In this document: positions 1 to 60,962 of the stretch, one piece after another
How the letters are laid out: the number at the start of each line of letters is the position of its first letter
Numbering within the stretch: position 1 is the first letter of the stretch
Source of the DNA: a phage
Assembly (NCBI GenBank): GCA_011939005.1
Contig: GCA_011939005.1_4858.1
Strand: one strand, 5' to 3'
DNA length: 64,000 nt
Position numbers and translations under genes: made by a program
Notes under the pieces: generated by a model
What the model was told of the DNA's origin: nothing
Databases searched by the model: none
Seen by the model: only the letters and a program-made list of their open reading frames with translations

Positions 1-891
1 GGTTTATCATACCTCACGCAGAATCTGTAAATTTTAATCAGCCAGGTACTGGCGTTTCACAACGGGAGTACCCACCCCTCTCGTCTGTTCCGAGCCGTCA
101 AGATCCGATCACCCCACTTTGGAGTTATCCCCCAAGTCTGCGGTTCTACACGCAGACCCCTTTTCGACGCAACGCCGAATTCGAATCAGTTTTGGCCCGA
201 CGCCAGAGCGGAATCAGCGATAACTATCGGAGGTAAGTTCAACGACGTCTCTCCGCTGCCCAGTCCTCTGGCGCTGCCACGGTCAACTCGGATTTTGTCA
301 TGGGTGCGCAGTCGACTTTCTCGACACTCTCGCAAACCGAACTACGCCCGACGTAGCACCGTCGGCAGGTCGGTTATTTACCGAGTACCTGAATGGGTGG
401 TGATTGTCGGAATCCCCGCCGACGCTCACCGGTTCTGTTCCACGGCGAAAGTTTTCCAGAACATAATAAATCACGCAGTGTTAGATTGCGCTTTGTCGAA
501 GACACCACGGTAGGTATTTTCGAAAAAGCGTCCTGGGTATCAGTCCCAGGACTTGGAGCCCTAGTGTGCAGGGTTTAAAAAGTGATTGGACCATTGGCGC
601 GGTCAATCGCTATTCGCATATAACAACAAACTCACGTAATCAAAAAATTACCGGCTCGAGGCGTAGGCGTCCAGGAGCCGGTGAGTCACACAGCAGTGAG
701 TCCCTCTGCGGGGATTTTCGTGGAGCTTGTCGTTGGAATAAAAATCCGTCCCCGGACGGGTTGGTGTTGTGGGTCGACTTGTCAGAGTCTACCTACCAGG
801 GAGGCGACCACCAAAGCTATGGGTTTTTGGACATCGAGTGGTGGTCTGAACACACGATAGGGAAACCACGTAAAAAATACACAGGGTACCC

Positions 892-1135
892 GATCTCGGT
901 CTTCCGTCCGATCACGATCTCTTAATAAGGATCACGCGCGCGCCCGCACGCGTTTTAAGATCTTAATATATTAATATATTTATTTATATAAATAATTATA
1001 ATAATTAAATATAATACCTAAAGGTATTATTATATTTAATATTATTATATATTTTAAAAGATCCTGGAGGATACGGGTGCGCGCACGCGCACGCGTATAA
1101 GGAAAGGGTCTTCGACCCGATCCACAGGATCGATC
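892..1135. promoter_or_regulatory. Candidate cis-acting element (replication-origin-like): A+T core 953-1059 with central palindrome 1011-1030, flanked by alternating Pu/Py GC tracts 933-952 and 1077-1096, 9 GATC sites
   Basis: Direct reading: GATC at 892, 910, 916, 930, 959, 1060, 1119, 1128, 1132; core has only 6 G/C in 107 nt; function is inference. Confidence 0.3.
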
Positions 1136-1686
1136 TAAAAAACAATCTAAGTGATTGTTTTAAAAAGAAATTTTGAGAATTAGATTAAATTATCCCCTAA
1201 GGGGGATTTTAGAGTGAGTTAAACAACCCAAAGAACTCGTAAGTAACCGACAGTGTGTGTCGGTTACAGAACGATCCAGTTTTCACCCAGACATGGCACG
1301 AAGTGCTACCCAACGTGTGATCGTCGCGGCGACCGGCGACCGTCGTCCCGGAACCGAAACGGGAATGGCTCTCTCGCGCTCTCAGCGGCCCGCTGGCGCG
1401 ATTTTCCGGTAGGGGGAACCCAAGTGTACTGGGTCAGTTATAAATCTCGTTCTAGCGCTTTCTAGAGCGTTTTTAATAACCGGTTAAAAAACATACAATC
1501 CTGAATCCCCATTCCCCGTATTTCCTCGCCCCGACAAAAATAAATTCACCGACTCGATGCAAGACCCCCTCTAAAACGCACGTAATTGACCCTAGAAAAC
1601 GATAAACTATCAAAAATGAGCTACCCTACATCCAGACCACTTAATCGTTTTCTGGTGTTTCCTAGACCTCTTTAATCGGATGGTTA

Positions 1687-1734
1687 AAAAAACAAAAAAA
1701 ATAAGATTGGCGTACTCCCCGAAGAGAGTACGCC
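1687..1734 (-). terminator. Intrinsic terminator (stem 1709-1717/1726-1734, UUCG-type loop on minus RNA, U-tract from plus A-run 1686-1704)
   Basis: 9-bp GC-rich stem directly 3' of minus-strand gene ending at 1742, followed on minus strand by long U-run. Confidence 0.7.
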
Positions 1735-1741
1735 TAGTGAC

Positions 1742-2251
1742 TTAACACTTGATGGTGTAGCCATCAAGGCCAAGGTGTACTGGTTTTATCCATAACCCTG
1801 GCTCCCCGAAAATATTCAGGTCGTAAGTTTGGTAATGCATGATCTTTGCAGGAACATGCACACCCATGCGTTGCAGAAATTCCCAGACGGCGACGTAGCG
1901 TTCACGAGTGATGAACATTAGCCCGGAGTCGAACCCGGAACCGATGTCTAGGAAATTACCAAGAGAACTGTCAAAACTTGACACCCCATCTTGAGTAAGT
2001 GCGACCAACCCTTTAGTTAAATCTCTGTGGTTGTCAATGAAGTTACAGAGATCTACGATGGTTATTTGACCGTAAATACGACGGAGGACGGCAGCAACAG
2101 CCAAAATCTCGCTGGTATTTCCGTAGTCACCTAAAGGGTTATGGTCCATCATCGCAGTAATTATGCTTGTGTCGCAGAGGTCGATTAACCGCTGGTCGTG
2201 TACCACCAGGTTAAGACCTTGCTCCACCTGCACGGTTGGCGCAGTAAACAT
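1742..2251 (-). CDS. Hypothetical protein (about 169 aa; ORF extends to 2296 but internal ATG at 2251 follows SD ggag and avoids overlap)
   Basis: Six-frame ORF; SD ggagcctcct immediately before ATG at 2251 and just after stop of upstream gene. Confidence 0.5.
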   Translation of the reverse strand: MFTAPTVQVEQGLNLVVHDQRLIDLCDTSIITAMMDHNPLGDYGNTSEILAVAAVLRRIYGQITIVDLCNFIDNHRDLTKGLVALTQDGVSSFDSSLGNFLDIGSGFDSGLMFITRERYVAVWEFLQRMGVHVPAKIMHYQTYDLNIFGEPGLWIKPVHLGLDGYTIKC

Positions 2252-2261
2252 AGGAGGCTCC

Positions 2262-3395
2262 TTACGTTTTGACTGACTGTGAAGGTAATCTGGCATCGTA
2301 CATTAAAAAGATTTCCAGCAGGTTCATACCCGTCGCGTAAAAGATTTGGTCTGTGATGACACTCACTAACGCATCTGGGTCAATCGCATCTACTGCGAAA
2401 TCGCTGTCGAACTGCCAGAACTCGACGTCATCCCCCTTTTCAAACGTCGCGGCATACAATCCAGGTTTCACACCACGCCGGAACGAAAAGAGTTTTGCGT
2501 CAGACTCAGTGTCCTTACCATAAATTTCCCCGTCGGTCAGTGTGATCGCTGCGCGTTTACACCGAGTTACCGTAAGGAGCGCACGGTTTGCAGATGCTTG
2601 CGATTTAAACGGATAGGGGCCATCGTATGTCGGGACATTCTGGTCGCCTAAGGCATCAAGTGCCTTACTCCGATAGACTACCGGAGACTTAAAATTACAC
2701 AGTCGATTCCCTTCGGTAAACATTGTGTATTCGACCTTAACGTCGGTACCGACGAGGTCAGCAGGGGACACTTTGTAGTGTGCTAACTGTCCCTGCACGC
2801 GGCGAGAGAGCATCGATGCCAGGAACGTGTGGTTGCCCTGTGTACGCAAGACATACCCAAACTCTGTGCAGTCGACGATACGAGCGTCCATACGCCGTAC
2901 AGGCTCCAGCCGGTAAGTCACATCATTCGCTTCGATAAGAAACTGACTGATGCTAACATCGCGAGATCGATGTTTGATTGCTTCAAACACTTCACCCGCT
3001 TCCAGAATAGCTGGTTCAATTACATTGACCTGGAATGGGAGGGGTTTCGTCGGCCGTTGACCCATTGTTGTCACTGTCATCGAACGTAGCCACGGGTCGT
3101 CCTCGCTAGGGTCATTGGAGAGCCAATGCGTTAACCAGCGAGAAAGATTCTGGGGAATCGTTGCGGTTGAATATAAAATCACGGTACCCATTATGCCTGC
3201 ATCGGCCAGCAAGCGCGCGAGTACCGTGTTCATCGAATCGTATTTGCCATTTCGAAGAATAGGTAATCCCCCGACCTGGACCATTTCGCAGATGACGCCG
3301 TGCGGCAGCACCCACATCTTCACTTGTTGGGCAGAATGTATCTGCCCCGTGCGTAGCTTTTCTTGCCACGCGTGCTTACGTTCATAGTTCATCAT
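2262..3395 (-). CDS. Hypothetical protein, 377 aa
   Basis: Long ORF, SD aggag upstream, followed by terminator at 1709-1734 after next gene. Confidence 0.6.
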   Translation of the reverse strand: MMNYERKHAWQEKLRTGQIHSAQQVKMWVLPHGVICEMVQVGGLPILRNGKYDSMNTVLARLLADAGIMGTVILYSTATIPQNLSRWLTHWLSNDPSEDDPWLRSMTVTTMGQRPTKPLPFQVNVIEPAILEAGEVFEAIKHRSRDVSISQFLIEANDVTYRLEPVRRMDARIVDCTEFGYVLRTQGNHTFLASMLSRRVQGQLAHYKVSPADLVGTDVKVEYTMFTEGNRLCNFKSPVVYRSKALDALGDQNVPTYDGPYPFKSQASANRALLTVTRCKRAAITLTDGEIYGKDTESDAKLFSFRRGVKPGLYAATFEKGDDVEFWQFDSDFAVDAIDPDALVSVITDQIFYATGMNLLEIFLMYDARLPSQSVKT

Positions 3396-3467
3396 TGGGT
3401 AAAATCTCCTTCAGGTATACTCTCAGTATGATAACATATATCCGTAAATTTTTAGAGGTTTAGCGCC

Positions 3468-4844
3468 ATGTCTGAATTGGTTTATGATTTCAGTGCCGGT
3501 TGTTATCGTGATACCGGAGTGAAGGTTGCCGTCGAATCATTCGGACGTGACCCATTCTTCGACGATGACACGTATTCTACGGGCTTGTATTACGACTACG
3601 GTTTTGGCGGCTACGTTCCGATGGGACTGGTGGTTGCTGCAGAAGCCATGAAGAATGACCGATTACGTAAAGTGTTTGACGAATGTTTTAAACATGTCGT
3701 TATCGATCGTCGTTTTGCAAAGCAAATTCAACTTCACGTGGATAACATTCTTAAACGTGAAGGCAATGTGGAGTGGCTAGGGTCTAATCTATTAGGCGTC
3801 CACACCATTCGTTTCTACGATTCTGACCGTAACCGCTTTTTTGAAGATGTCTTGAAAGTGGATGAAGATTATCTGTTCGAGATGATTAAAGAATCGGGTA
3901 CGATTAACACCGACTGGGCAGTGGCGGGTGATCCGTATAACCTCTCTACGGTGTATACTCTACATCGAATGATGTCGAAATTCGCCGATCGTGAAATCCA
4001 CGCCGCGGCGGTATCGTTAGTAACGCTTCTGCAATTCAAATTCTACTCCAGTATATATTATCACTTCTTCCCCAAGCCGGTCGACATGGCCGCTGCCGAC
4101 GCCGCATACTCGATGTTGTCGTTAAAGTTCGATATCCGTCGTTTAGGCAACTGGGGTCTGCACATGCAGGAGCGTTCAGAATACTTCTGTTCTCCGGAGT
4201 ACCCAAACTACGACGCGGTTAAACGTTTTGATACGCCAGACCTGGTATTGCGTTTTATCACCGACCTGAACACCCGTACCAAACAAACTGTGAAGGACTA
4301 TTACGCGGTATTGGACAAAGTGCGTCGTGATAACAGTCGTGTAATTACGCAGTCAACCCGAATTGAGTTAGACGGTGAATCGATTATCCGTGACAAAGTG
4401 GGTGCGCTGGATATCGCTAAGCAGAATTTGTTCGATGCGTCTTACGACATCAACAATCTCTACAAAGAGCAATTGGCAAAAGTGGTATTGGAGCTAGTAC
4501 CCAAAGCATCTCCCGCGGCACTGAAAACTTTGCTGGCGTATATTGCAAGTCTACCGCTTGGCAAAAAGCGCGATGAGATTAACGCTATCATGGAGGACAC
4601 GCTATCGCACGCGTTCGACGAAATTGTTACCTCTCGTCTGAACTTTAACGATGCGAGCACGGTTCTACTGCGTATGCGTTCGTTGTACCAGGCTTCGAAG
4701 TCCCCTAACCCATACGTGTTATCGTTGCGTGAACGGATTGAGAAACTGGCCGCACGGGAAACACACATCCGCCATGAAGCCGCGTTGGCCGCTTTGCGTA
4801 ATGCGTTACTGTTGTACTTCTTGATCCGCTCTTTGCAGAAATAA
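3468..4844 (+). CDS. Hypothetical protein, 458 aa
   Basis: Long ORF with SD gagg upstream and strong terminator downstream. Confidence 0.7.
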   Translation: MSELVYDFSAGCYRDTGVKVAVESFGRDPFFDDDTYSTGLYYDYGFGGYVPMGLVVAAEAMKNDRLRKVFDECFKHVVIDRRFAKQIQLHVDNILKREGNVEWLGSNLLGVHTIRFYDSDRNRFFEDVLKVDEDYLFEMIKESGTINTDWAVAGDPYNLSTVYTLHRMMSKFADREIHAAAVSLVTLLQFKFYSSIYYHFFPKPVDMAAADAAYSMLSLKFDIRRLGNWGLHMQERSEYFCSPEYPNYDAVKRFDTPDLVLRFITDLNTRTKQTVKDYYAVLDKVRRDNSRVITQSTRIELDGESIIRDKVGALDIAKQNLFDASYDINNLYKEQLAKVVLELVPKASPAALKTLLAYIASLPLGKKRDEINAIMEDTLSHAFDEIVTSRLNFNDASTVLLRMRSLYQASKSPNPYVLSLRERIEKLAARETHIRHEAALAALRNALLLYFLIRSLQK

Positions 4845-4895
4845 AATAAAATGCCACCTCTCCAGTTTCGGAGAGGTGGCTACGTCGTATTTTTT
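4841..4895. terminator. Bidirectional intrinsic terminator between convergent genes (hairpin 4853-4880, 11-bp stem)
   Basis: Perfect 11-bp stem gccacctctcc/ggagaggtggc, T-run 4889-4895 on plus, A-run 4841-4850 giving U-run for minus. Confidence 0.75.
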
Positions 4896-4910
4896 CGAGT
4901 TAAAGTTGAT

Positions 4911-5153
4911 TCAGGCGAGTGCTCCCGATACGGCAACTTGATGTAGGGTATACACAACGTGTAGCCCCGCGGTCGATAGTCCACCGATAAGCAATACGCC
5001 AAAGCTACAGATAATCTGTCCGAGCCGCATTGTGCGTGTGCAGACATCGTGGCTTTGTGCGTGTATGCGTATTACTTCGATGGTGTGGCGTAAGCCAAAG
5101 TACAGGCAAATCCACATTACCAGCACGATTGCATAGTAGAGTTGAGTCATCAC
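4911..5153 (-). CDS. Small membrane protein with two predicted TM helices (holin-like candidate)
   Basis: 80 aa, two hydrophobic stretches (LYYAIVLVMWICLYFGL and IICSFGVLLIGGLSTAGLHVV); start overlaps terminase stop by 4 nt. Confidence 0.45.
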   Translation of the reverse strand: MMTQLYYAIVLVMWICLYFGLRHTIEVIRIHAQSHDVCTRTMRLGQIICSFGVLLIGGLSTAGLHVVYTLHQVAVSGALA

Positions 5154-7261
5154 TTCATCCTCTGTCGTTGGATTAGCTCTTTCAAGCTTTCCATCGATGC
5201 GACGTTACGAACGTCAGTGTTGAGTTGAGAGACGAGCGCTTGAATACGATTCTTGTACATGAGCTGTTGTACCGGGTCGGCTACAACTTGACTCTGTCTA
5301 ATCATCGTTTCAATTTGCCCCATCAGTTGTTGTTGCTTTTCTTCTTCCTCGACTGCAGCCTCTTCATCGAATTCACCTGCCATGCCCCCAAGCATATTGC
5401 GGTTGCGCATCATCAGTCGGCTGTTACTTATACCGTAGTGGCCTAAGTTGTTGCCGAACAGAAGTAACCACATTGCCAGAAGCCAGGATATTACCAGGTC
5501 ATCGTGACCGGATGCACGGTGGTCTATGCGCCCGTTTCGTTCGACGAGACCGAGGATTTGGTCGATCAATTCGCCTGACCGCAGTAAGTCCGCAGAAAGA
5601 CGCAACGCCGTGGTAAATACTTCACCATACAACTTACGGCGTTTATCCTGGTCGGTTGAGAAACCGATGTATTTACGGAATTTGTCCCAGAAGCGCTCTG
5701 GACTGCCCACAGGGCCACGATGGAACTCTTTGTAAAGTTCATCGTTCCTTGAGTAATCCTGGGTCACTTTCACGTACAAACGACGATGCAAATCGCGAAC
5801 CTTAGATTGCAGCTGCAGTATAATGGCATCTGCTACCGAGGAGCCGGTAGACCGTCGTTCCAGAATGAGTACCGTGTTCGGATATTCGATCATGAAGTCT
5901 GCTAAGTGAATCGCAAACCCGATGACGTTTGTTTCGTTCACGGTGAGCTTGCCGGCATATTCGGCAGTGACAGAGTTGACGATTGACATGGCAATGGCGT
6001 CACGTCCAACGGCTTCGGAAGTATCCAAACCGATGATGTGGCGGTCTTGCATTTTAACCAGCATCTGCTCTTCAGTGTAATACCAATCCGTTACGTAGTT
6101 GGATGCAGAGATAATTTTCTGCGCCGCACGAACACGCGAGTCGTTCATACGTCTTGCATCATCGCCTGAGAACGGTTTGTTGTAACCACCGGTTGTCCAT
6201 TCACCACCGAAGTCACGGCGGATTTGGTCTAGTGTACCTGGGGCGTTCGCAATCATATCTGCGAGTTCTTCGTCCGTGGTACCGAGTTGGCGGTGGTTGT
6301 ATTTCACGTAGAACATGATACGTGGAATCTTCGCAGTAGAGCCTTTGCGAATCATGTCAATCAGTTGTGCACGAGTCGGAATGTCGATATACCGTTCATC
6401 CCACGAAATCCCCGACGTCATCAGGCTGTACATGTACTCGCCTTCTTCTGTCGCCAAATCCCCAGGCGTTGTTGCGAAGACGTTGCCGTATGGAACACCT
6501 TCGGCTTCGTTAATACGACGCGCCGCGGTACCCGATGCTAGTGCAGCAGGGAGGATATGGTGGATGTTGTTGGTAAACGGTCCTTCATCCGAGAACAGGC
6601 GTCCGGCTGTGAGTCCACGGCCTACCCCGTTCGCAGCTTCCTTATCGTTTTGACCGATGCCGGTGATAAGTTTGTTACCCTGTGCTAGACAAGCAAATGT
6701 CTCACGGTTATCAGGATCGTCCGGATGATGAGGCCAGAGATAATCCGGTAACGCGTTACGCAGTTGTTTCATTTTGTTGATAGTTTCTTCACGCAGGGCA
6801 GGACCCTTCGTGATAAGAATCGTACGTGAGTTCTCCAGGAAGCGCATCAGCCACAATAGCAATGCGGACATCCCGACGGTCTTACCATGCTGACGGAGAA
6901 ACTCGATAGCGGCGTCGATGTTGTTGAAGAAAATCCAATACATCGAAAAGTTACCGCGGTCTAGACGAAACGGCATCCCGTTCTTTACACCATCCGCAGG
7001 GACCCGGACACACTCACGGAAGAAGTACCATGGGTTTTCCGCACACTCCGTAACAATCATCGCTTTTTGTTCGAGTGTTAAATCCGGGCTAAACGGATCA
7101 ACACCACGGAGTTCGGGATTGTGTAATGCCAGGTGGACGTACCAATGCTGGACACCTAATCCTTGTAGTGTTGTGGCGAATTGAAGGAAGTGCACGTTTG
7201 GTGTGACATCGTCAACAATCGCCCCCGGATAGTGTCGCCAATCGTTTTTTCGCAGTATCAT
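5150..7261 (-). CDS. terL: Terminase large subunit (T4 gp17-like)
   Basis: 703 aa; LRQHGKTVGMSALL resembles T4 gp17 Walker A SRQLGKTTVVAIF; C-terminal GHDDLVISWLLAMWLL resembles gp17 nuclease motif GYHDDLVMSLVIFGWL (both from memory); SD ggag. Confidence 0.9.
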   Translation of the reverse strand: MILRKNDWRHYPGAIVDDVTPNVHFLQFATTLQGLGVQHWYVHLALHNPELRGVDPFSPDLTLEQKAMIVTECAENPWYFFRECVRVPADGVKNGMPFRLDRGNFSMYWIFFNNIDAAIEFLRQHGKTVGMSALLLWLMRFLENSRTILITKGPALREETINKMKQLRNALPDYLWPHHPDDPDNRETFACLAQGNKLITGIGQNDKEAANGVGRGLTAGRLFSDEGPFTNNIHHILPAALASGTAARRINEAEGVPYGNVFATTPGDLATEEGEYMYSLMTSGISWDERYIDIPTRAQLIDMIRKGSTAKIPRIMFYVKYNHRQLGTTDEELADMIANAPGTLDQIRRDFGGEWTTGGYNKPFSGDDARRMNDSRVRAAQKIISASNYVTDWYYTEEQMLVKMQDRHIIGLDTSEAVGRDAIAMSIVNSVTAEYAGKLTVNETNVIGFAIHLADFMIEYPNTVLILERRSTGSSVADAIILQLQSKVRDLHRRLYVKVTQDYSRNDELYKEFHRGPVGSPERFWDKFRKYIGFSTDQDKRRKLYGEVFTTALRLSADLLRSGELIDQILGLVERNGRIDHRASGHDDLVISWLLAMWLLLFGNNLGHYGISNSRLMMRNRNMLGGMAGEFDEEAAVEEEEKQQQLMGQIETMIRQSQVVADPVQQLMYKNRIQALVSQLNTDVRNVASMESLKELIQRQRMK

Positions 7262-50664: not shown

Positions 50665-51340
50665 ACAGCGCAGTGTCCTTTACGTCAGTACCGACGTATT
50701 GAGCAAGAAAACGGGTGGACTCCTTAAAGGGGTTCACCTTATCTCTTTTTATTTGCGCGATTGCTTCTTCCGTTAATTCGCTGGTCAGCATACTCGGTCG
50801 GGTAATCGTAAAATCCGGAATCGGTTTCTGGAAATGGCTCGCGTGTTGTTCTATCCACGGATACCAATCGTACATTATCCAACCATCCCATGCAGAAGCA
50901 AGTCGTCCTGGTGTAAGATCGCTGTGAGGAATAACAACGACGTCTACTTGCACTTCGTTGTAGTAGTAGCGCAGTTCTTCCAAAAACGCATGACGTTCTT
51001 CATCATCGAGATCAGCGTATGGCCACAGGTTAAACGTTAAGACAGGTCGCTCGATAGGAGCGTGCATCTGTATCGTCATTAACATTGCCTGTACTTCGTT
51101 CTTTAGCGTAAGCAACATTTCTGTTGGCTGCGCGTTCTGCAACGCGCGTTTATCACGCTCCGCGAACTTTTTATTCCAGTCCTGAATTCCTACCACTTCG
51201 GCCCACGCATCCGTGAACCGCATCCGATACACTTCTAAATCAAGCTTCTCTAATACATCAGGCTGCAACACTTTCGCCCAACCAATTCGTGTATCGAAGA
51301 TTGTGTCGATATCGACTAAGAAACGGCGTCCTAATCTCAT
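50612..51340 (-). CDS. Hypothetical protein, 242 aa
   Basis: ORF; 3' end overlaps convergent gene. Confidence 0.5.
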   Translation of the reverse strand: MRLGRRFLVDIDTIFDTRIGWAKVLQPDVLEKLDLEVYRMRFTDAWAEVVGIQDWNKKFAERDKRALQNAQPTEMLLTLKNEVQAMLMTIQMHAPIERPVLTFNLWPYADLDDEERHAFLEELRYYYNEVQVDVVVIPHSDLTPGRLASAWDGWIMYDWYPWIEQHASHFQKPIPDFTITRPSMLTSELTEEAIAQIKRDKVNPFKESTRFLAQYVGTDVKDTALFSLRRHQQDDDSQTQTP

Positions 51341-52005
51341 TCCGGGCGTCCTAAGTTGTTACCGATGTGCATTGCTTTAAAGTACGAAGACCATGTACGC
51401 GGCGCTTTTGAACTGGTACGCTCAGCCCCTTCCAGGTTGATGCGACCTTTACCGGTTTGCCGTAGCGATTGATAGAACGCACGTTGTAACGTATCGTTAC
51501 CACCACGCGCCCACAGGAACTCCTGGAGCGTTGAGTCGTGTCCATCCGAGTACATGATGTACGCTTCTGGAAACGAAACACCCGAAGCTTTGGAAGGCCC
51601 TACTACCTGACCTGAGAGTTTATCGCGGACTTTATCGTTCTTCGCCACCGCCATTTTCTTCTCATGCATCTGCGTCTGGCGACGTGCAGGCAGGCGGAAG
51701 ACTAAATGGGGGTAACGGGTACGCTGTAGGATACCGGTTTTCGGTTCCGTGAGCCACAGGCGCTGACACAAGCTCAGTCCCATCGCTTCGCAAATTTTAA
51801 TATTGCGCATATGGTCAATTTTGACCTTGCCACCAGTTGGGTTGTAAACAGGCAACCCTTCGCGCAGACGATTGAACTCTTCGTCAGACATTCGCGAGAA
51901 AGCGCGCTTGGCAGCTTCCGCGTTAATCCCGGTCGGGTCAACTAAGTTCAGTAACTGTAAAGCATAAGCTTCTGCTTTTTTTCGCCGTGCCGGGTCTAAT
52001 CTCAT
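51337..52005 (-). CDS. Hypothetical protein, 222 aa
   Basis: ORF. Confidence 0.5.
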   Translation of the reverse strand: MRLDPARRKKAEAYALQLLNLVDPTGINAEAAKRAFSRMSDEEFNRLREGLPVYNPTGGKVKIDHMRNIKICEAMGLSLCQRLWLTEPKTGILQRTRYPHLVFRLPARRQTQMHEKKMAVAKNDKVRDKLSGQVVGPSKASGVSFPEAYIMYSDGHDSTLQEFLWARGGNDTLQRAFYQSLRQTGKGRINLEGAERTSSKAPRTWSSYFKAMHIGNNLGRPE

Positions 52006-52277
52006 TTTTTCATCCTCTCGCGGAGCACTGGAAGAACCACACGTTCCAGGTCTTCAATCCAGTACGGGATATCTTCATTGTGTTCAGGCACACCGACCGC
52101 ATCAACCTTCGGTTTATCATTAATCAGGTTGCCGTAATGGGCATTTACCTGATGACTAAATTCAGACAGTGCATGTCGCGGTGCTGAGAACTCGTTATGG
52201 AACGCGGTGCTAAGTTCCTGGCTAATACCAGCGAGACCCAGACACAGACGCTCTACAATATCTTTCTGATAACGCAT
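52002..52277 (-). CDS. Hypothetical protein, 91 aa
   Basis: ORF. Confidence 0.4.
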   Translation of the reverse strand: MRYQKDIVERLCLGLAGISQELSTAFHNEFSAPRHALSEFSHQVNAHYGNLINDKPKVDAVGVPEHNEDIPYWIEDLERVVLPVLRERMKK

Positions 52278-52322: not shown

Positions 52323-53816
52323 TTATTTCTTCTTAGTCAAGAACTTAGGTTCCAGACCATCCACGGCCATCGCCAGTAATGACATTGCTGTTAAGCAACG
52401 CTTACCACCTTTGACTTCCTGATCCTTGAACATCCAGTATTCCACTGTATTGTCCAGAATTTCATTCCAGTCCCACTTTTCGTCGATAACTTTATAAAGC
52501 TCCGCCGGTGAGAGATGGTACTTCATTTCCAGTCGGTGGTAGTTATTCTGCATGTACGCTAATGCGGCGGTGATTTCCAACGCACGGCGCAAACGCGGGT
52601 TGCTGTCACACATGTCGCGAATCGTGGTACGCATGAAAGATGTACCAGGTAGCAAATCGAGGGTATAGTTAGCACCACTACGTTTGTAGCCCCATTCATC
52701 TTTCAGTGTGTCGCTCAGGTAATGCCACAGAGAGAGGTGATAAAGCAGACCCATCTCCTGCGAGAAGACCATTTTGAACTTAACGCCTGTGTGACCACCC
52801 TTCGCACGGTACTGCGTGAAAACAATTTCTTTCAGGTCGTTCACCGAAGCATTCATTGCTTTCGAACGCGCAGTCGGGTATTTCTCTTCGTTTACACCGG
52901 TCTTCGCGTTGTAAGTCTGATCCTGCTTCAACTCACCAGACTTGGTTGCAACCAGCAGGGAGTTAGTTAAGAACGACAACTGACGGCGCGGGATACCCGC
53001 AAACTTCAGATCATCGCCTGCATCGTCCAACAGTTTACCGTTCGCCTTCGGTCCACCACGGCCACCTGCCGCCATTGCTTTACCCGCATCGTCGGCCAAC
53101 TGAGCAACGAAGCCCATATAGAAACCACCACGCGCAAACGCAGACGGCCAACGGCTCATCATATTCGATTTCTGCAGGGCATCGTGGGCGTTCAGGATGT
53201 TCTGTTCAGAATCACCGACTTCCGATTTGGCATGTTTCTCTTCCAGAGAAGAGGTGTGCCATTCGGACAGGGAGTCAATCGAGTACAACCACGGGTCGAG
53301 AATCTTTTTCGCAGAGCGACGGATTGGGTCAGGGAATGGTGTTTCGCGTGCCTTACCAGCCATATACTCTTTGAAACGTTTTTCGACTTCGTCACGGATA
53401 TAAGCAGAGTAATACTCCTCACCCGCCATGATATCCGAGCCAACCATGTTGTAACGACCTTCGTGGATCAGGTCCAGCACGCCGCCCGTTGGTGATACTT
53501 CTAATCCGTTTGCTTTCGCTGCGGAAATGTACCCCGTTTCCAGACGACTTAATGCTGCCGTAACTTCGGTATCGTATTTCGATCCCCAGGCTGCATTATA
53601 ACGTTGCAGAATCATGAAAATGCAGAAGTCTAATAAGGTAGACTTAAAGGTGTTCCCACGACCTGCGAAGCCCATGATGTGGGCAAAACCACCGTTGAGG
53701 TAGTACAAACCATCTTCCCCGCGCTCGTAGTTACCGAGAGCGTGGTCCATGATGGTATATACGTTAAAACGAGGGCGAATTACTTCACCCATGACTTGTT
53801 TAGCTGGACCTGCCAT
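52323..53816 (-). CDS. UvsX/RecA-family recombinase-like ATPase candidate (497 aa)
   Basis: MGFAGRGNTFKSTLL resembles the atypical T4 UvsX Walker A LAGPSKSFKSNFGL (F-K-S in place of G-K-T), recalled from memory; rest of protein not verified. Confidence 0.4.
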   Translation of the reverse strand: MAGPAKQVMGEVIRPRFNVYTIMDHALGNYERGEDGLYYLNGGFAHIMGFAGRGNTFKSTLLDFCIFMILQRYNAAWGSKYDTEVTAALSRLETGYISAAKANGLEVSPTGGVLDLIHEGRYNMVGSDIMAGEEYYSAYIRDEVEKRFKEYMAGKARETPFPDPIRRSAKKILDPWLYSIDSLSEWHTSSLEEKHAKSEVGDSEQNILNAHDALQKSNMMSRWPSAFARGGFYMGFVAQLADDAGKAMAAGGRGGPKANGKLLDDAGDDLKFAGIPRRQLSFLTNSLLVATKSGELKQDQTYNAKTGVNEEKYPTARSKAMNASVNDLKEIVFTQYRAKGGHTGVKFKMVFSQEMGLLYHLSLWHYLSDTLKDEWGYKRSGANYTLDLLPGTSFMRTTIRDMCDSNPRLRRALEITAALAYMQNNYHRLEMKYHLSPAELYKVIDEKWDWNEILDNTVEYWMFKDQEVKGGKRCLTAMSLLAMAVDGLEPKFLTKKK

Positions 53817-53831: not shown

Positions 53832-54131
53832 TTAGCGTTTTTTCAGTGGGAGTAACAGACGACGTTTATGCCAAACTTCGAAATGCATTTCTGCCCACTC
53901 GGTGACTTGACTGTCATCTTTAGGGTTGATATTAGAAATGCCCTTGAAGCGGTTACGGTTACGTTCGTCGATTTCGATTTCCAGAACGCGCTGACCATCA
54001 GCACGAGTGGTCACGTTCAGGATTTTACCAACCACGATCGGACTACCATCGGTATTCTTCTTCGTCGGGGTGGTGTAAATCTCAGGTTCGATACGAGAGG
54101 TTAAAGCGCGAGTCAGTAATTTGATTCTCAT
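53832..54131 (-). CDS. Hypothetical protein, 99 aa
   Basis: ORF. Confidence 0.45.
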   Translation of the reverse strand: MRIKLLTRALTSRIEPEIYTTPTKKNTDGSPIVVGKILNVTTRADGQRVLEIEIDERNRNRFKGISNINPKDDSQVTEWAEMHFEVWHKRRLLLPLKKR

Positions 54132-59447: not shown

Positions 59448-60962
59448 TTACACCTCTTCTTCTCGCAGTATGCGACGGTTTGCGTAATACGCACACCACA
59501 ACCCATGATACTCTTTACCGATATAGATTAAGAAGTAACGGATGTAGTATTTTTCAGGACGACACACCGCGATGTAATAACGGCCTTCCGGTTCTTTAAT
59601 ACGGTTGATTTCCGTACGCGATGGAATATCGATACCGCGAGTCAAAATAACCGAGACAGGTCGTTTACCCATCGGAAAGTCGATCTTTAACGTTATTGAC
59701 TTATCGACGCTACGGTAGTATTCCTTGACAGGTTTACCTTTGTCGTCGAATAGCAAGTCGGTAATGTCGTTTAAGACATAACCCTTTTCCTGATGCAGAA
59801 CATCTCTCAACGTTGTAGCGAGTTCGTCACGAATATCCAGCGCACGGTACGACAATAAGGGCGGGCGAAGCATTCTGGAGATGGCCAGGTCTTCAAAGAA
59901 CCAGACATTAGAATCCTCCCCACTGAAATGCATCTTGTCTGCCGGCAATCCGTCGCCTGCCACATCAACGAATTTCTTACGCTTAACGAACTCATTGTTA
60001 ACAACGCCAATTGGATCATACTGCCGCATCTTCGGTGTATCTTTCCATGCCAGGGCGGCGTGGTTGTTTACAATCGTGTAGATGTTATCCCACGGTTGTT
60101 TAGTGAACATTACGGAAAAGTGTGCATCGGGAATCATTTTCCCAATAAACACCAAGTCGTCCTTGTTCTTTGCATGGTTGCCACCAAACATGTAATAGAA
60201 AGTTTCATCTTTCACTTTTACAGTAGGATGGTCTTCGTTCACCAACGGATAGCAATATTTAACCGTACAAATCGGCGGATATGCCGCAAGGTTCATCCCA
60301 GCGGCGATGGGCTCGGGTTCCGCGGATGCAGGCAACTCATCCTTCGACCAGTACGGCTGATATGGAACACCGTCGTTGGTCGCGGTGATAGCTGAACCTT
60401 TTCTAGCCAATTCGTCCGCCCGGTCGTTACCGTAGTGGCCGGAGTGTCCTTTGATTTTGATAACCTTAACACCCCGTCCTTCTTTTTTCATCTGCTGTTT
60501 GATTTCCCAGATACGAACAATAAGTTCTTTGTTCGCCAGCGGAGTACCATCAGCACGAACCCAACCACGTTTATGCCAGCCGTCTATCCACTCGTTAAAA
60601 GTGTTTACAACGTAACTGGCATCCACGTAGATGATATAGTTCTTCGCACGGAATGGCGCATTCTCAAACAACGTGATGAAGGCGATTAACTCGCCCACAT
60701 CTGAGTAGAACTCTTTCGGAACGGGAATAACGGCGTCGACAAATTGAACGGTGTCCGGCAACTCCGGACACTTCACATCCTGCGGCACTTTTTTGTATCC
60801 AACAGTGGTAATCCGTTCTGAAACACCCGGATGGCTATAAGCCTGACTGTCTTCCAAATCTCCGTTGTTGAATAAATAACCATGAATACCAGCCCCCGAA
60901 CCTTTCGGGGACTCAGTATGACTACCATCGGTATAAATAACCGCTACGTCGACGTCTTTCAT
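59448..60962 (-). CDS. RNase HI-domain protein with about 300-aa C-terminal extension of unknown function
   Basis: N-terminal domain matches E. coli RNase HI at all five catalytic positions: VAVIYTDGS (D10), GELIAF (E48), YVDASY (D70), KGHSGH (H124), NDRADELA (D134). Confidence 0.85.
   Translation of the reverse strand: MKDVDVAVIYTDGSHTESPKGSGAGIHGYLFNNGDLEDSQAYSHPGVSERITTVGYKKVPQDVKCPELPDTVQFVDAVIPVPKEFYSDVGELIAFITLFENAPFRAKNYIIYVDASYVVNTFNEWIDGWHKRGWVRADGTPLANKELIVRIWEIKQQMKKEGRGVKVIKIKGHSGHYGNDRADELARKGSAITATNDGVPYQPYWSKDELPASAEPEPIAAGMNLAAYPPICTVKYCYPLVNEDHPTVKVKDETFYYMFGGNHAKNKDDLVFIGKMIPDAHFSVMFTKQPWDNIYTIVNNHAALAWKDTPKMRQYDPIGVVNNEFVKRKKFVDVAGDGLPADKMHFSGEDSNVWFFEDLAISRMLRPPLLSYRALDIRDELATTLRDVLHQEKGYVLNDITDLLFDDKGKPVKEYYRSVDKSITLKIDFPMGKRPVSVILTRGIDIPSRTEINRIKEPEGRYYIAVCRPEKYYIRYFLIYIGKEYHGLWCAYYANRRILREEEV

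Follow-up and report, generated by a model that had tools for sequence, protein, structure and literature searches.

We suggest, with a probability of roughly 85%, that the gene product analyzed here is a UvsX/RecA-family ATP-dependent strand-exchange recombinase of the Chimalliviridae type, which would enter the phage nucleus by import and act there in DNA repair and recombination-primed replication. Its gene lies in a window of 64,000 nucleotides of phage DNA (contig GCA_011939005.1_4858.1), to which all coordinates given below refer:

52323..53816, minus strand: complete coding sequence of the UvsX/RecA-like recombinase; 497 amino acids plus stop, ATG start; identical to SPN3US gp216 (AEP84049.1)

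The listing of open reading frames contains one single long frame with exactly these boundaries, in agreement with the original prediction, which had noticed the motif AGRGNTFKS in a 497-amino-acid protein at this location and had left the strand (minus) unstated. The start is sound because a TAA stop codon stands in frame directly ahead of the ATG and a GGAG sequence is present a few bases upstream. At the DNA level the reading frame is 99% identical to the gene for gp216 of the Salmonella phage SPN3US, and at the protein level the identity is 100%. SPN3US is a member of the genus Seoulvirus within the Chimalliviridae, the nucleus-forming jumbo phages. Its gp216 is labeled as a hypothetical protein, and the corresponding proteins of several near-identical or related phages are labeled "UvsX-like recombinase" or "putative UvsX protein". 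As a discovery gp216 matters little, since SPN3US is a model jumbo phage whose genome has been sequenced, and its gp216 was named a diverged UvsX homolog as early as 2017 (PMC5694885); the family as such is already known, and relatives routinely serve as phage-nucleus markers and import cargos. Many GenBank records, that of SPN3US included, still read "hypothetical", and explicit evidence now confirms the UvsX-like identity. In three records of Salmonella phages (SPFM5/14/15; LR535903, LR535912 and LR535913), the gp216 gene is matched in about 25 separate pieces, and it is cut into two to three "hypothetical protein" coding sequences there and in the proteins P0030-32, P0042 and P0045; indel errors seem to be frequent throughout these three assemblies.

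The earlier remark that the protein is, apart from its P-loop, unrecognizable by eye was a fair one. A BLASTP comparison of gp216 with T4 UvsX yields no significant match (E=0.82), no match was obtained in Pfam (RecA PF00154 included, even at E up to 10) or in NCBIfam (TIGR02012 recA included, even at E up to 1), and a phmmer search of the PDB with the single gp216 sequence returned nothing relevant. Hence, curated libraries that work on sequence alone cannot classify gp216; even T4 UvsX scores no more than 56 bits with TIGR02012, for which the cut-off is 325. In contrast to its invisibility in the pairwise BLAST search, the relationship to T4 UvsX (3io5), likewise a PHROG 97 protein, emerges from profile comparisons. 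gp216 is a member of PHROG 97 ("UvsX-like recombinase"), which it matches with E=2.8e-55 over profile positions 39-347; the values for T4 UvsX are E=9.4e-105 and positions 20-355, and phiKZ gp152 matches with E=1.3e-55. We collected 105 homologs, of which 82, with identities to gp216 down to 24%, were aligned (alignment A1). The best match of the resulting family HMM among PDB sequences is T4 UvsX 3io5, with a marginal E=0.022, followed only by archaeal RadA proteins. When the family was compared by hhalign with an alignment of ten T4-type UvsX sequences (alignment A2), a match with 91.7% probability (E=7.9e-7) was found between gp216 residues 43-238 and UvsX residues 47-204, which pairs GRGNTFKS with GPSKSFKS, YDTE with YDSE and IDSLSE with IDSLGN. 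The match with the T4 UvsX sequence taken singly covers only 52 columns, and that with the single E. coli RecA sequence is not significant (E=0.49) and was excluded as evidence. In greedy mode (mact 0-0.05), the UvsX alignment reaches full length, with low confidence past residue 240 except for the last helix of the C-terminal domain.

The motifs of the ATPase site are conserved throughout the gp216 family:

53640..53663, minus strand: Walker A motif (P-loop) GRGNTFKS, residues 52-59; Phe replaces the canonical second Gly, compare GPSKSFKS of T4 UvsX
53565..53576, minus strand: YDTE, residues 81-84; D82 and E84 invariant; aligns to T4 UvsX YDSE (E92)
53262..53279, minus strand: Walker B motif IDSLSE, residues 180-185; D181 invariant; aligns to UvsX IDSLGN

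The nonapeptide AGRGNTFKS corresponds to residues 51-59 (window positions 53640-53666), and its proposed counterpart AGPSKSFKS is indeed present at residues 58-66 of T4 UvsX, as translated from uvsX in NC_000866. The resemblance exceeds chance. In alignment A1, G52, N55, K58 and S/T59 are found in all 82 sequences; F57 is present in 73 of them (Tyr in 7, Gly in 2), so that Phe at the position of the second Walker A Gly is a signature of the family. The position of E92 in T4 UvsX and of the Glu in the gp216 YDTE motif is the one occupied by the catalytic Glu (E96) of RecA. Invariant across the 82 homologs are furthermore D82, E84, D181, N206, K216, R337 and K339. The invariance of K58, E84 and D181, together with their alignment to the UvsX motifs, is in keeping with membership of the RecA/Rad51/UvsX family, and the preservation of K58, E84, D181, R337 and K339 despite sequence identities as low as 24% points to selection on catalysis. 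The P-loop of phiKZ gp152 (Nlp1; L015 15753-17192) reads SRPNNFKT. The first Walker A Gly, invariant in the 82-sequence alignment and kept by gp216, is thus a Ser in the phiKZ protein; both canonical P-loop Gly residues are gone from Nlp1, and yet it has a clear in vivo phenotype.

An AlphaFold2 model built on alignment A1 has a mean pLDDT of 90.4 and a pTM of 0.91, and falls below a pLDDT of 50 only at residues 244-264. In this predicted model gp216 possesses the RecA-type α/β ATPase core fold. All of the top 50 Foldseek matches in the PDB are bacterial RecA proteins (E 4e-12 to 2e-9). The original prediction of a diverged UvsX/RecA-like recombinase was to stand or fall with a RecA fold; both the model and the structural matches give RecA, and with the UvsX homology and the conserved ATPase motifs the interpretation is supported. 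The structural match extends over almost the whole of RecA and hence takes in its C-terminal domain, which is a mark of recombinases as opposed to helicases of the RecA superfamily.

Beyond the ATPase motifs, the core contains the following elements:

53169..53216, minus strand: candidate L1 loop and following helix, residues 201-216 (GDSEQNILNAHDALQK); N206 and K216 invariant
53100..53102, minus strand: Q239, last residue of the core strand that leads into candidate L2; the position is His in 72 of the 82 family members and Gln in the other 10
52989..53099, minus strand: candidate L2 DNA-binding loop, residues 240-276; Gly/Lys-rich; residues 244-264 are the sole segment with pLDDT <50
52836..52931, minus strand: family-specific insertion between core strands, residues 296-327
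52800..52808, minus strand: R337-A-K339 at the end of the long core strand E328-338; both basic residues invariant

The gp216 segment GDSEQNILNAHDALQK resembles IGDSHMGLAARMMSQ of RecA, in an alignment that is by itself not significant. The disordered loop formed by residues 244-264 sits where L2 is expected, in a region past residue 240 for which the alignment is of low confidence. Between positions 238 and 282, gp216 contains 45 residues, compared with a family median of 37, and it differs from its Chimalliviridae orthologs by this longer Gly/Lys-rich L2 region and by Gln239, where most of them have His; the ten sequences with Gln represent the SPN3US clade. The same two alternatives occur at the equivalent site of UvsX, which has His (INH), and of RecA, which has Gln (INQ). 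These His and Gln residues of UvsX and RecA serve as the γ-phosphate sensor, and position 239 would have the same role in gp216. The Gly-Gly pair that follows L2, invariant in T4-type UvsX proteins (G210/G211, alignment A2), is in contrast not conserved in the gp216 family (G274 in 48/82). In RecA K248/K250 and in UvsX K246/R248 reach the ATP of the neighboring protomer, and the UvsX pair is invariant in alignment A2. By the order of structural elements, rather than by a confident residue alignment, R337 and K339 are candidate equivalents of these residues.

gp216 departs from RecA and UvsX at its N-terminus and through a number of additions; the region ahead of Walker B and the C-terminal part are mapped as follows:

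53292..53519, minus strand: enlarged region between the strand of the catalytic-position Glu and Walker B, residues 100-175; extra helices and a β-hairpin (E156-163/E168-173) in the model
52542..52754, minus strand: RecA/UvsX-like C-terminal domain, residues 355-425; last helix NPRLRRALEITAALAYM aligns to UvsX HQPFRDAIKRAYQLGAI
52326..52541, minus strand: C-terminal extension ending in a basic tail, residues 426-497; conserved and helical, its fold modeled with high confidence

RecA and UvsX polymerize via an N-terminal helix. No such helix is present in the AlphaFold2 model of gp216, in which residues 1-16 form a coil. Across the family a median of 24 residues precedes the position of D24, and the match to PHROG 97 starts about 19 profile positions later in gp216 than in T4 UvsX. 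A miscalled start codon as the source of the short N-terminus is ruled out by the in-frame stop directly before the ATG. Four metagenome homologs (P0023, P0024, P0026 and P0027) are 635-636 amino acids long and carry about 143 extra N-terminal residues; an internal Met (MAGPAK) of these proteins aligns with Met1 of gp216. Rather than a new domain, the extra residues probably reflect fusion to an upstream reading frame or a gene call that wrongly ran across it; an intein-like insertion is ruled out, as the extra 143 residues of the 635-amino-acid homologs are N-terminal, ahead of the internal Met.

With 497 residues, gp216 is longer than T4 UvsX (391 residues; NC_000866), as had been noted at the outset, and its 106 additional residues stem from insertions and a folded C-terminal module, while the N-terminal helix of T4 UvsX is missing. 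The stretch from E84 to D181 comprises 98 residues, compared with 51 from E92 to D143 in T4 UvsX. The equivalence of the last helices of the C-terminal domains, NPRLRRALEITAALAYM and HQPFRDAIKRAYQLGAI, is of moderate confidence in the greedy hhalign alignment. The tail of gp216 is basic, with a net charge of +5 over the last 30 residues, whereas that of T4 UvsX, which lies outside the crystallized core, is acidic. Bacterial RecA proteins (E. coli 3cmu; S. pneumoniae 8amd) are 12-15% identical to gp216, which differs from them by its non-canonical P-loop, the lack of the N-terminal helix and of an acidic C-terminal tail, and about 190 extra residues; RecA has no counterpart of gp216 residues 426-497. 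A likeness over the full length is found elsewhere: the "UvsX" proteins of Aeromonas phages D6/D3 and of the Vibrio pTD1 group match gp216 structurally from end to end (TM 0.81-0.87, 24-26% identity), as in the BFVD match to the Aeromonas phage D6 protein, whereas ordinary phage RecA/UvsX proteins match in the core only (TM ~0.45-0.6). In tblastn searches, a second group of jumbo phages, of 230-260 kb and with Aeromonas phages D3/PS2 and Vibrio phages pTD1/VP4B among them, matches gp216 residues 313-497 only, the N-terminal two thirds of the D6/D3 and pTD1 group proteins being too diverged for tblastn. The full-length structural match of the D6 type and the C-terminal tblastn match together indicate that the enlarged architecture is common beyond the phiKZ-like phages, and conservation of this recombinase type across jumbo-phage groups is highest in the C-terminal third.

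It is conceivable, though we regard it as rather doubtful, that the UvsX clade of the jumbo phages/Chimalliviridae is a structurally distinct recombinase subtype that dispenses with the N-terminal helix and carries conserved additions, namely the insertion of about 50 residues before Walker B, the 296-327 insertion and the folded C-terminal module of about 70 residues with its basic tail. Such a subtype might use a different filament interface, or the additions might offer a recognition surface for import into the nucleus. At the level of residues, the ATPase motifs, the His/Gln switch and R337/K339 are conserved, and the departures are the absent N-terminal helix, the insertions and the C-terminal module; these differences from RecA and UvsX are natural targets for studies on how a recombinase works, and how its import is recognized, inside the phage nucleus.

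gp216 aligns end to end with phiKZ gp152 (30% identity, E=2e-54 by BLASTP) and is therefore its ortholog. This orthology, the conserved gene context and the affiliation of Seoulvirus with the Chimalliviridae place gp216 in the UvsX (Nlp1) group of the Chimalliviridae core genome. The two proteins share PHROG 97, their gene neighborhood, a short N-terminus and the C-terminal extension. phiKZ gp152 has been named Nlp1, a "UvsX/RecA homolog" whose import requires Imp1 and Imp2 and whose fusion partners are taken into the phage nucleus with it (10.1101/2024.03.27.586873). Because Imp2, the Nlp1-specific import factor, is reported to be conserved only in Pseudomonas phages (10.1101/2024.03.27.586873), SPN3US may use another route of import. 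phiKZ mutants lacking nlp1 replicate more slowly, form small plaques, have a competitive index of 0.05 and are sensitive to the CBASS nuclease NucC (PMC12676376). PhiPA3 gp175, whose gene lies directly under a tblastn match of gp216, is the nucleus-localized "RecA" used in proximity labeling (PMC10643120). Further characterized orthologs are Goslar gp193, RAY gp150 (counted in the literature among the core genes of phages that encode chimallin) and PCH45 gp72 (described as nuclear and non-essential); the 201phi2-1 protein is annotated as "hypothetical uvsX". Since the PCH45 ortholog is non-essential, replication is not strictly dependent on the recombinase. Our literature search found selective nuclear import reported for orthologs and no such report for SPN3US gp216, nor any ATPase, filament or strand-exchange biochemistry for members of its clade.

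By analogy with the orthologs, for which others have demonstrated nuclear localization, dedicated import and deletion phenotypes that affect fitness, replication and NucC sensitivity, gp216 would be translated in the host cytoplasm and then cross into the phage nucleus by import. Inside, it would bind ATP via its variant P-loop G-x-x-N-x-F-K-S, coat phage single-stranded DNA as a filament through L1 and L2, and catalyze homology search and strand invasion. This activity would lead to the repair of broken phage DNA and to recombination-primed replication.

Against the recombinase reading count the failed searches in Pfam, NCBIfam and BLASTP, the missing N-terminal helix, the lost Gly-Gly pair, the phiKZ P-loop SRPNNFKT, the non-essential PCH45 ortholog and the lack of clade biochemistry in the literature. 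To these is added the neighborhood: among ten neighboring reading frames, Pfam and PHROGs reveal no UvsY, UvsW or DprA partner. A DprA gene lies near RAY gp150, and UvsY/UvsW are, according to PMC7824862, confined to jumbo phages of the T4-like kind. One could envision that a protein with a RecA fold is no strand-exchange recombinase and instead another ATPase of the RecA superfamily acting on nuclear phage DNA, be it DnaB-like, Sak4-like, a KaiC-like ring or an annealing or loader protein. We consider this improbable, as the ranking of the structural matches, the inclusion of RecA's C-terminal domain in them, the catalytic invariance and a deletion phenotype resembling that of T4 uvsX fit it poorly. 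They fit just as poorly with a degenerate, catalytically impaired RecA-like protein that is no ATP-driven enzyme and is retained mainly for a role of structure, DNA binding or import in the phage nucleus, a highly improbable notion that draws on the non-canonical P-loop (Phe for Gly in gp216, with the first Gly also missing in phiKZ) and on orthologs that have become known mostly for their efficient import into the nucleus, but that has to contend with the same Phe-Lys-Ser P-loop in T4 UvsX, annotated in GenBank as a DNA-dependent ATPase, and with a Walker A Lys, a catalytic-position Glu, a Walker B Asp and R337/K339 that are invariant in 82/82 sequences.

The recombinase gene resides in a context that is shared with phiKZ. 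The order of PHROGs in the window is phrog_4682 (opposite strand), phrog_10750, phrog_97 (gp216), phrog_6181, phrog_3233 and phrog_3328, that around phiKZ gp152 is 4682 | 97 - 2450 - 6181 - 3233 - 16245 - 3328, and the order 4682 | 97 - 6181 - 3233 - 3328 is thus common to both. The neighbors of interest are:

53832-54131, minus strand: SPN3US gp215, phrog_10750, 99 amino acids; separated from the recombinase gene by 15 bp, on its upstream side
52002-52277, minus strand: SPN3US gp217, phrog_6181, 91 amino acids; directly downstream of the recombinase gene
51337-52005, minus strand: reading frame of 222 amino acids, phrog_3233 "RNA polymerase beta subunit"; "virion structural protein 22" in SPN3US
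59448-60962, minus strand: RNase H-like protein of 504 amino acids, SPN3US gp207, phrog_3265/phrog_531; at the position of phiKZ gp155

In phiKZ, the corresponding site yielded no phrog_10750 gene. The phrog_6181 gene of phiKZ (gp150) is likewise located between the UvsX-like gene and a virion RNA polymerase beta fragment, and gp217, as a conserved small neighbor, could be an accessory or mediator protein. The phrog_3233 reading frame, two genes downstream of gp216, encodes one piece of the split virion RNA polymerase that phiKZ-like phages typically have. phiKZ gp155, whose position gp207 occupies, is Nlp2, another nucleus-imported protein (10.1101/2024.03.27.586873).
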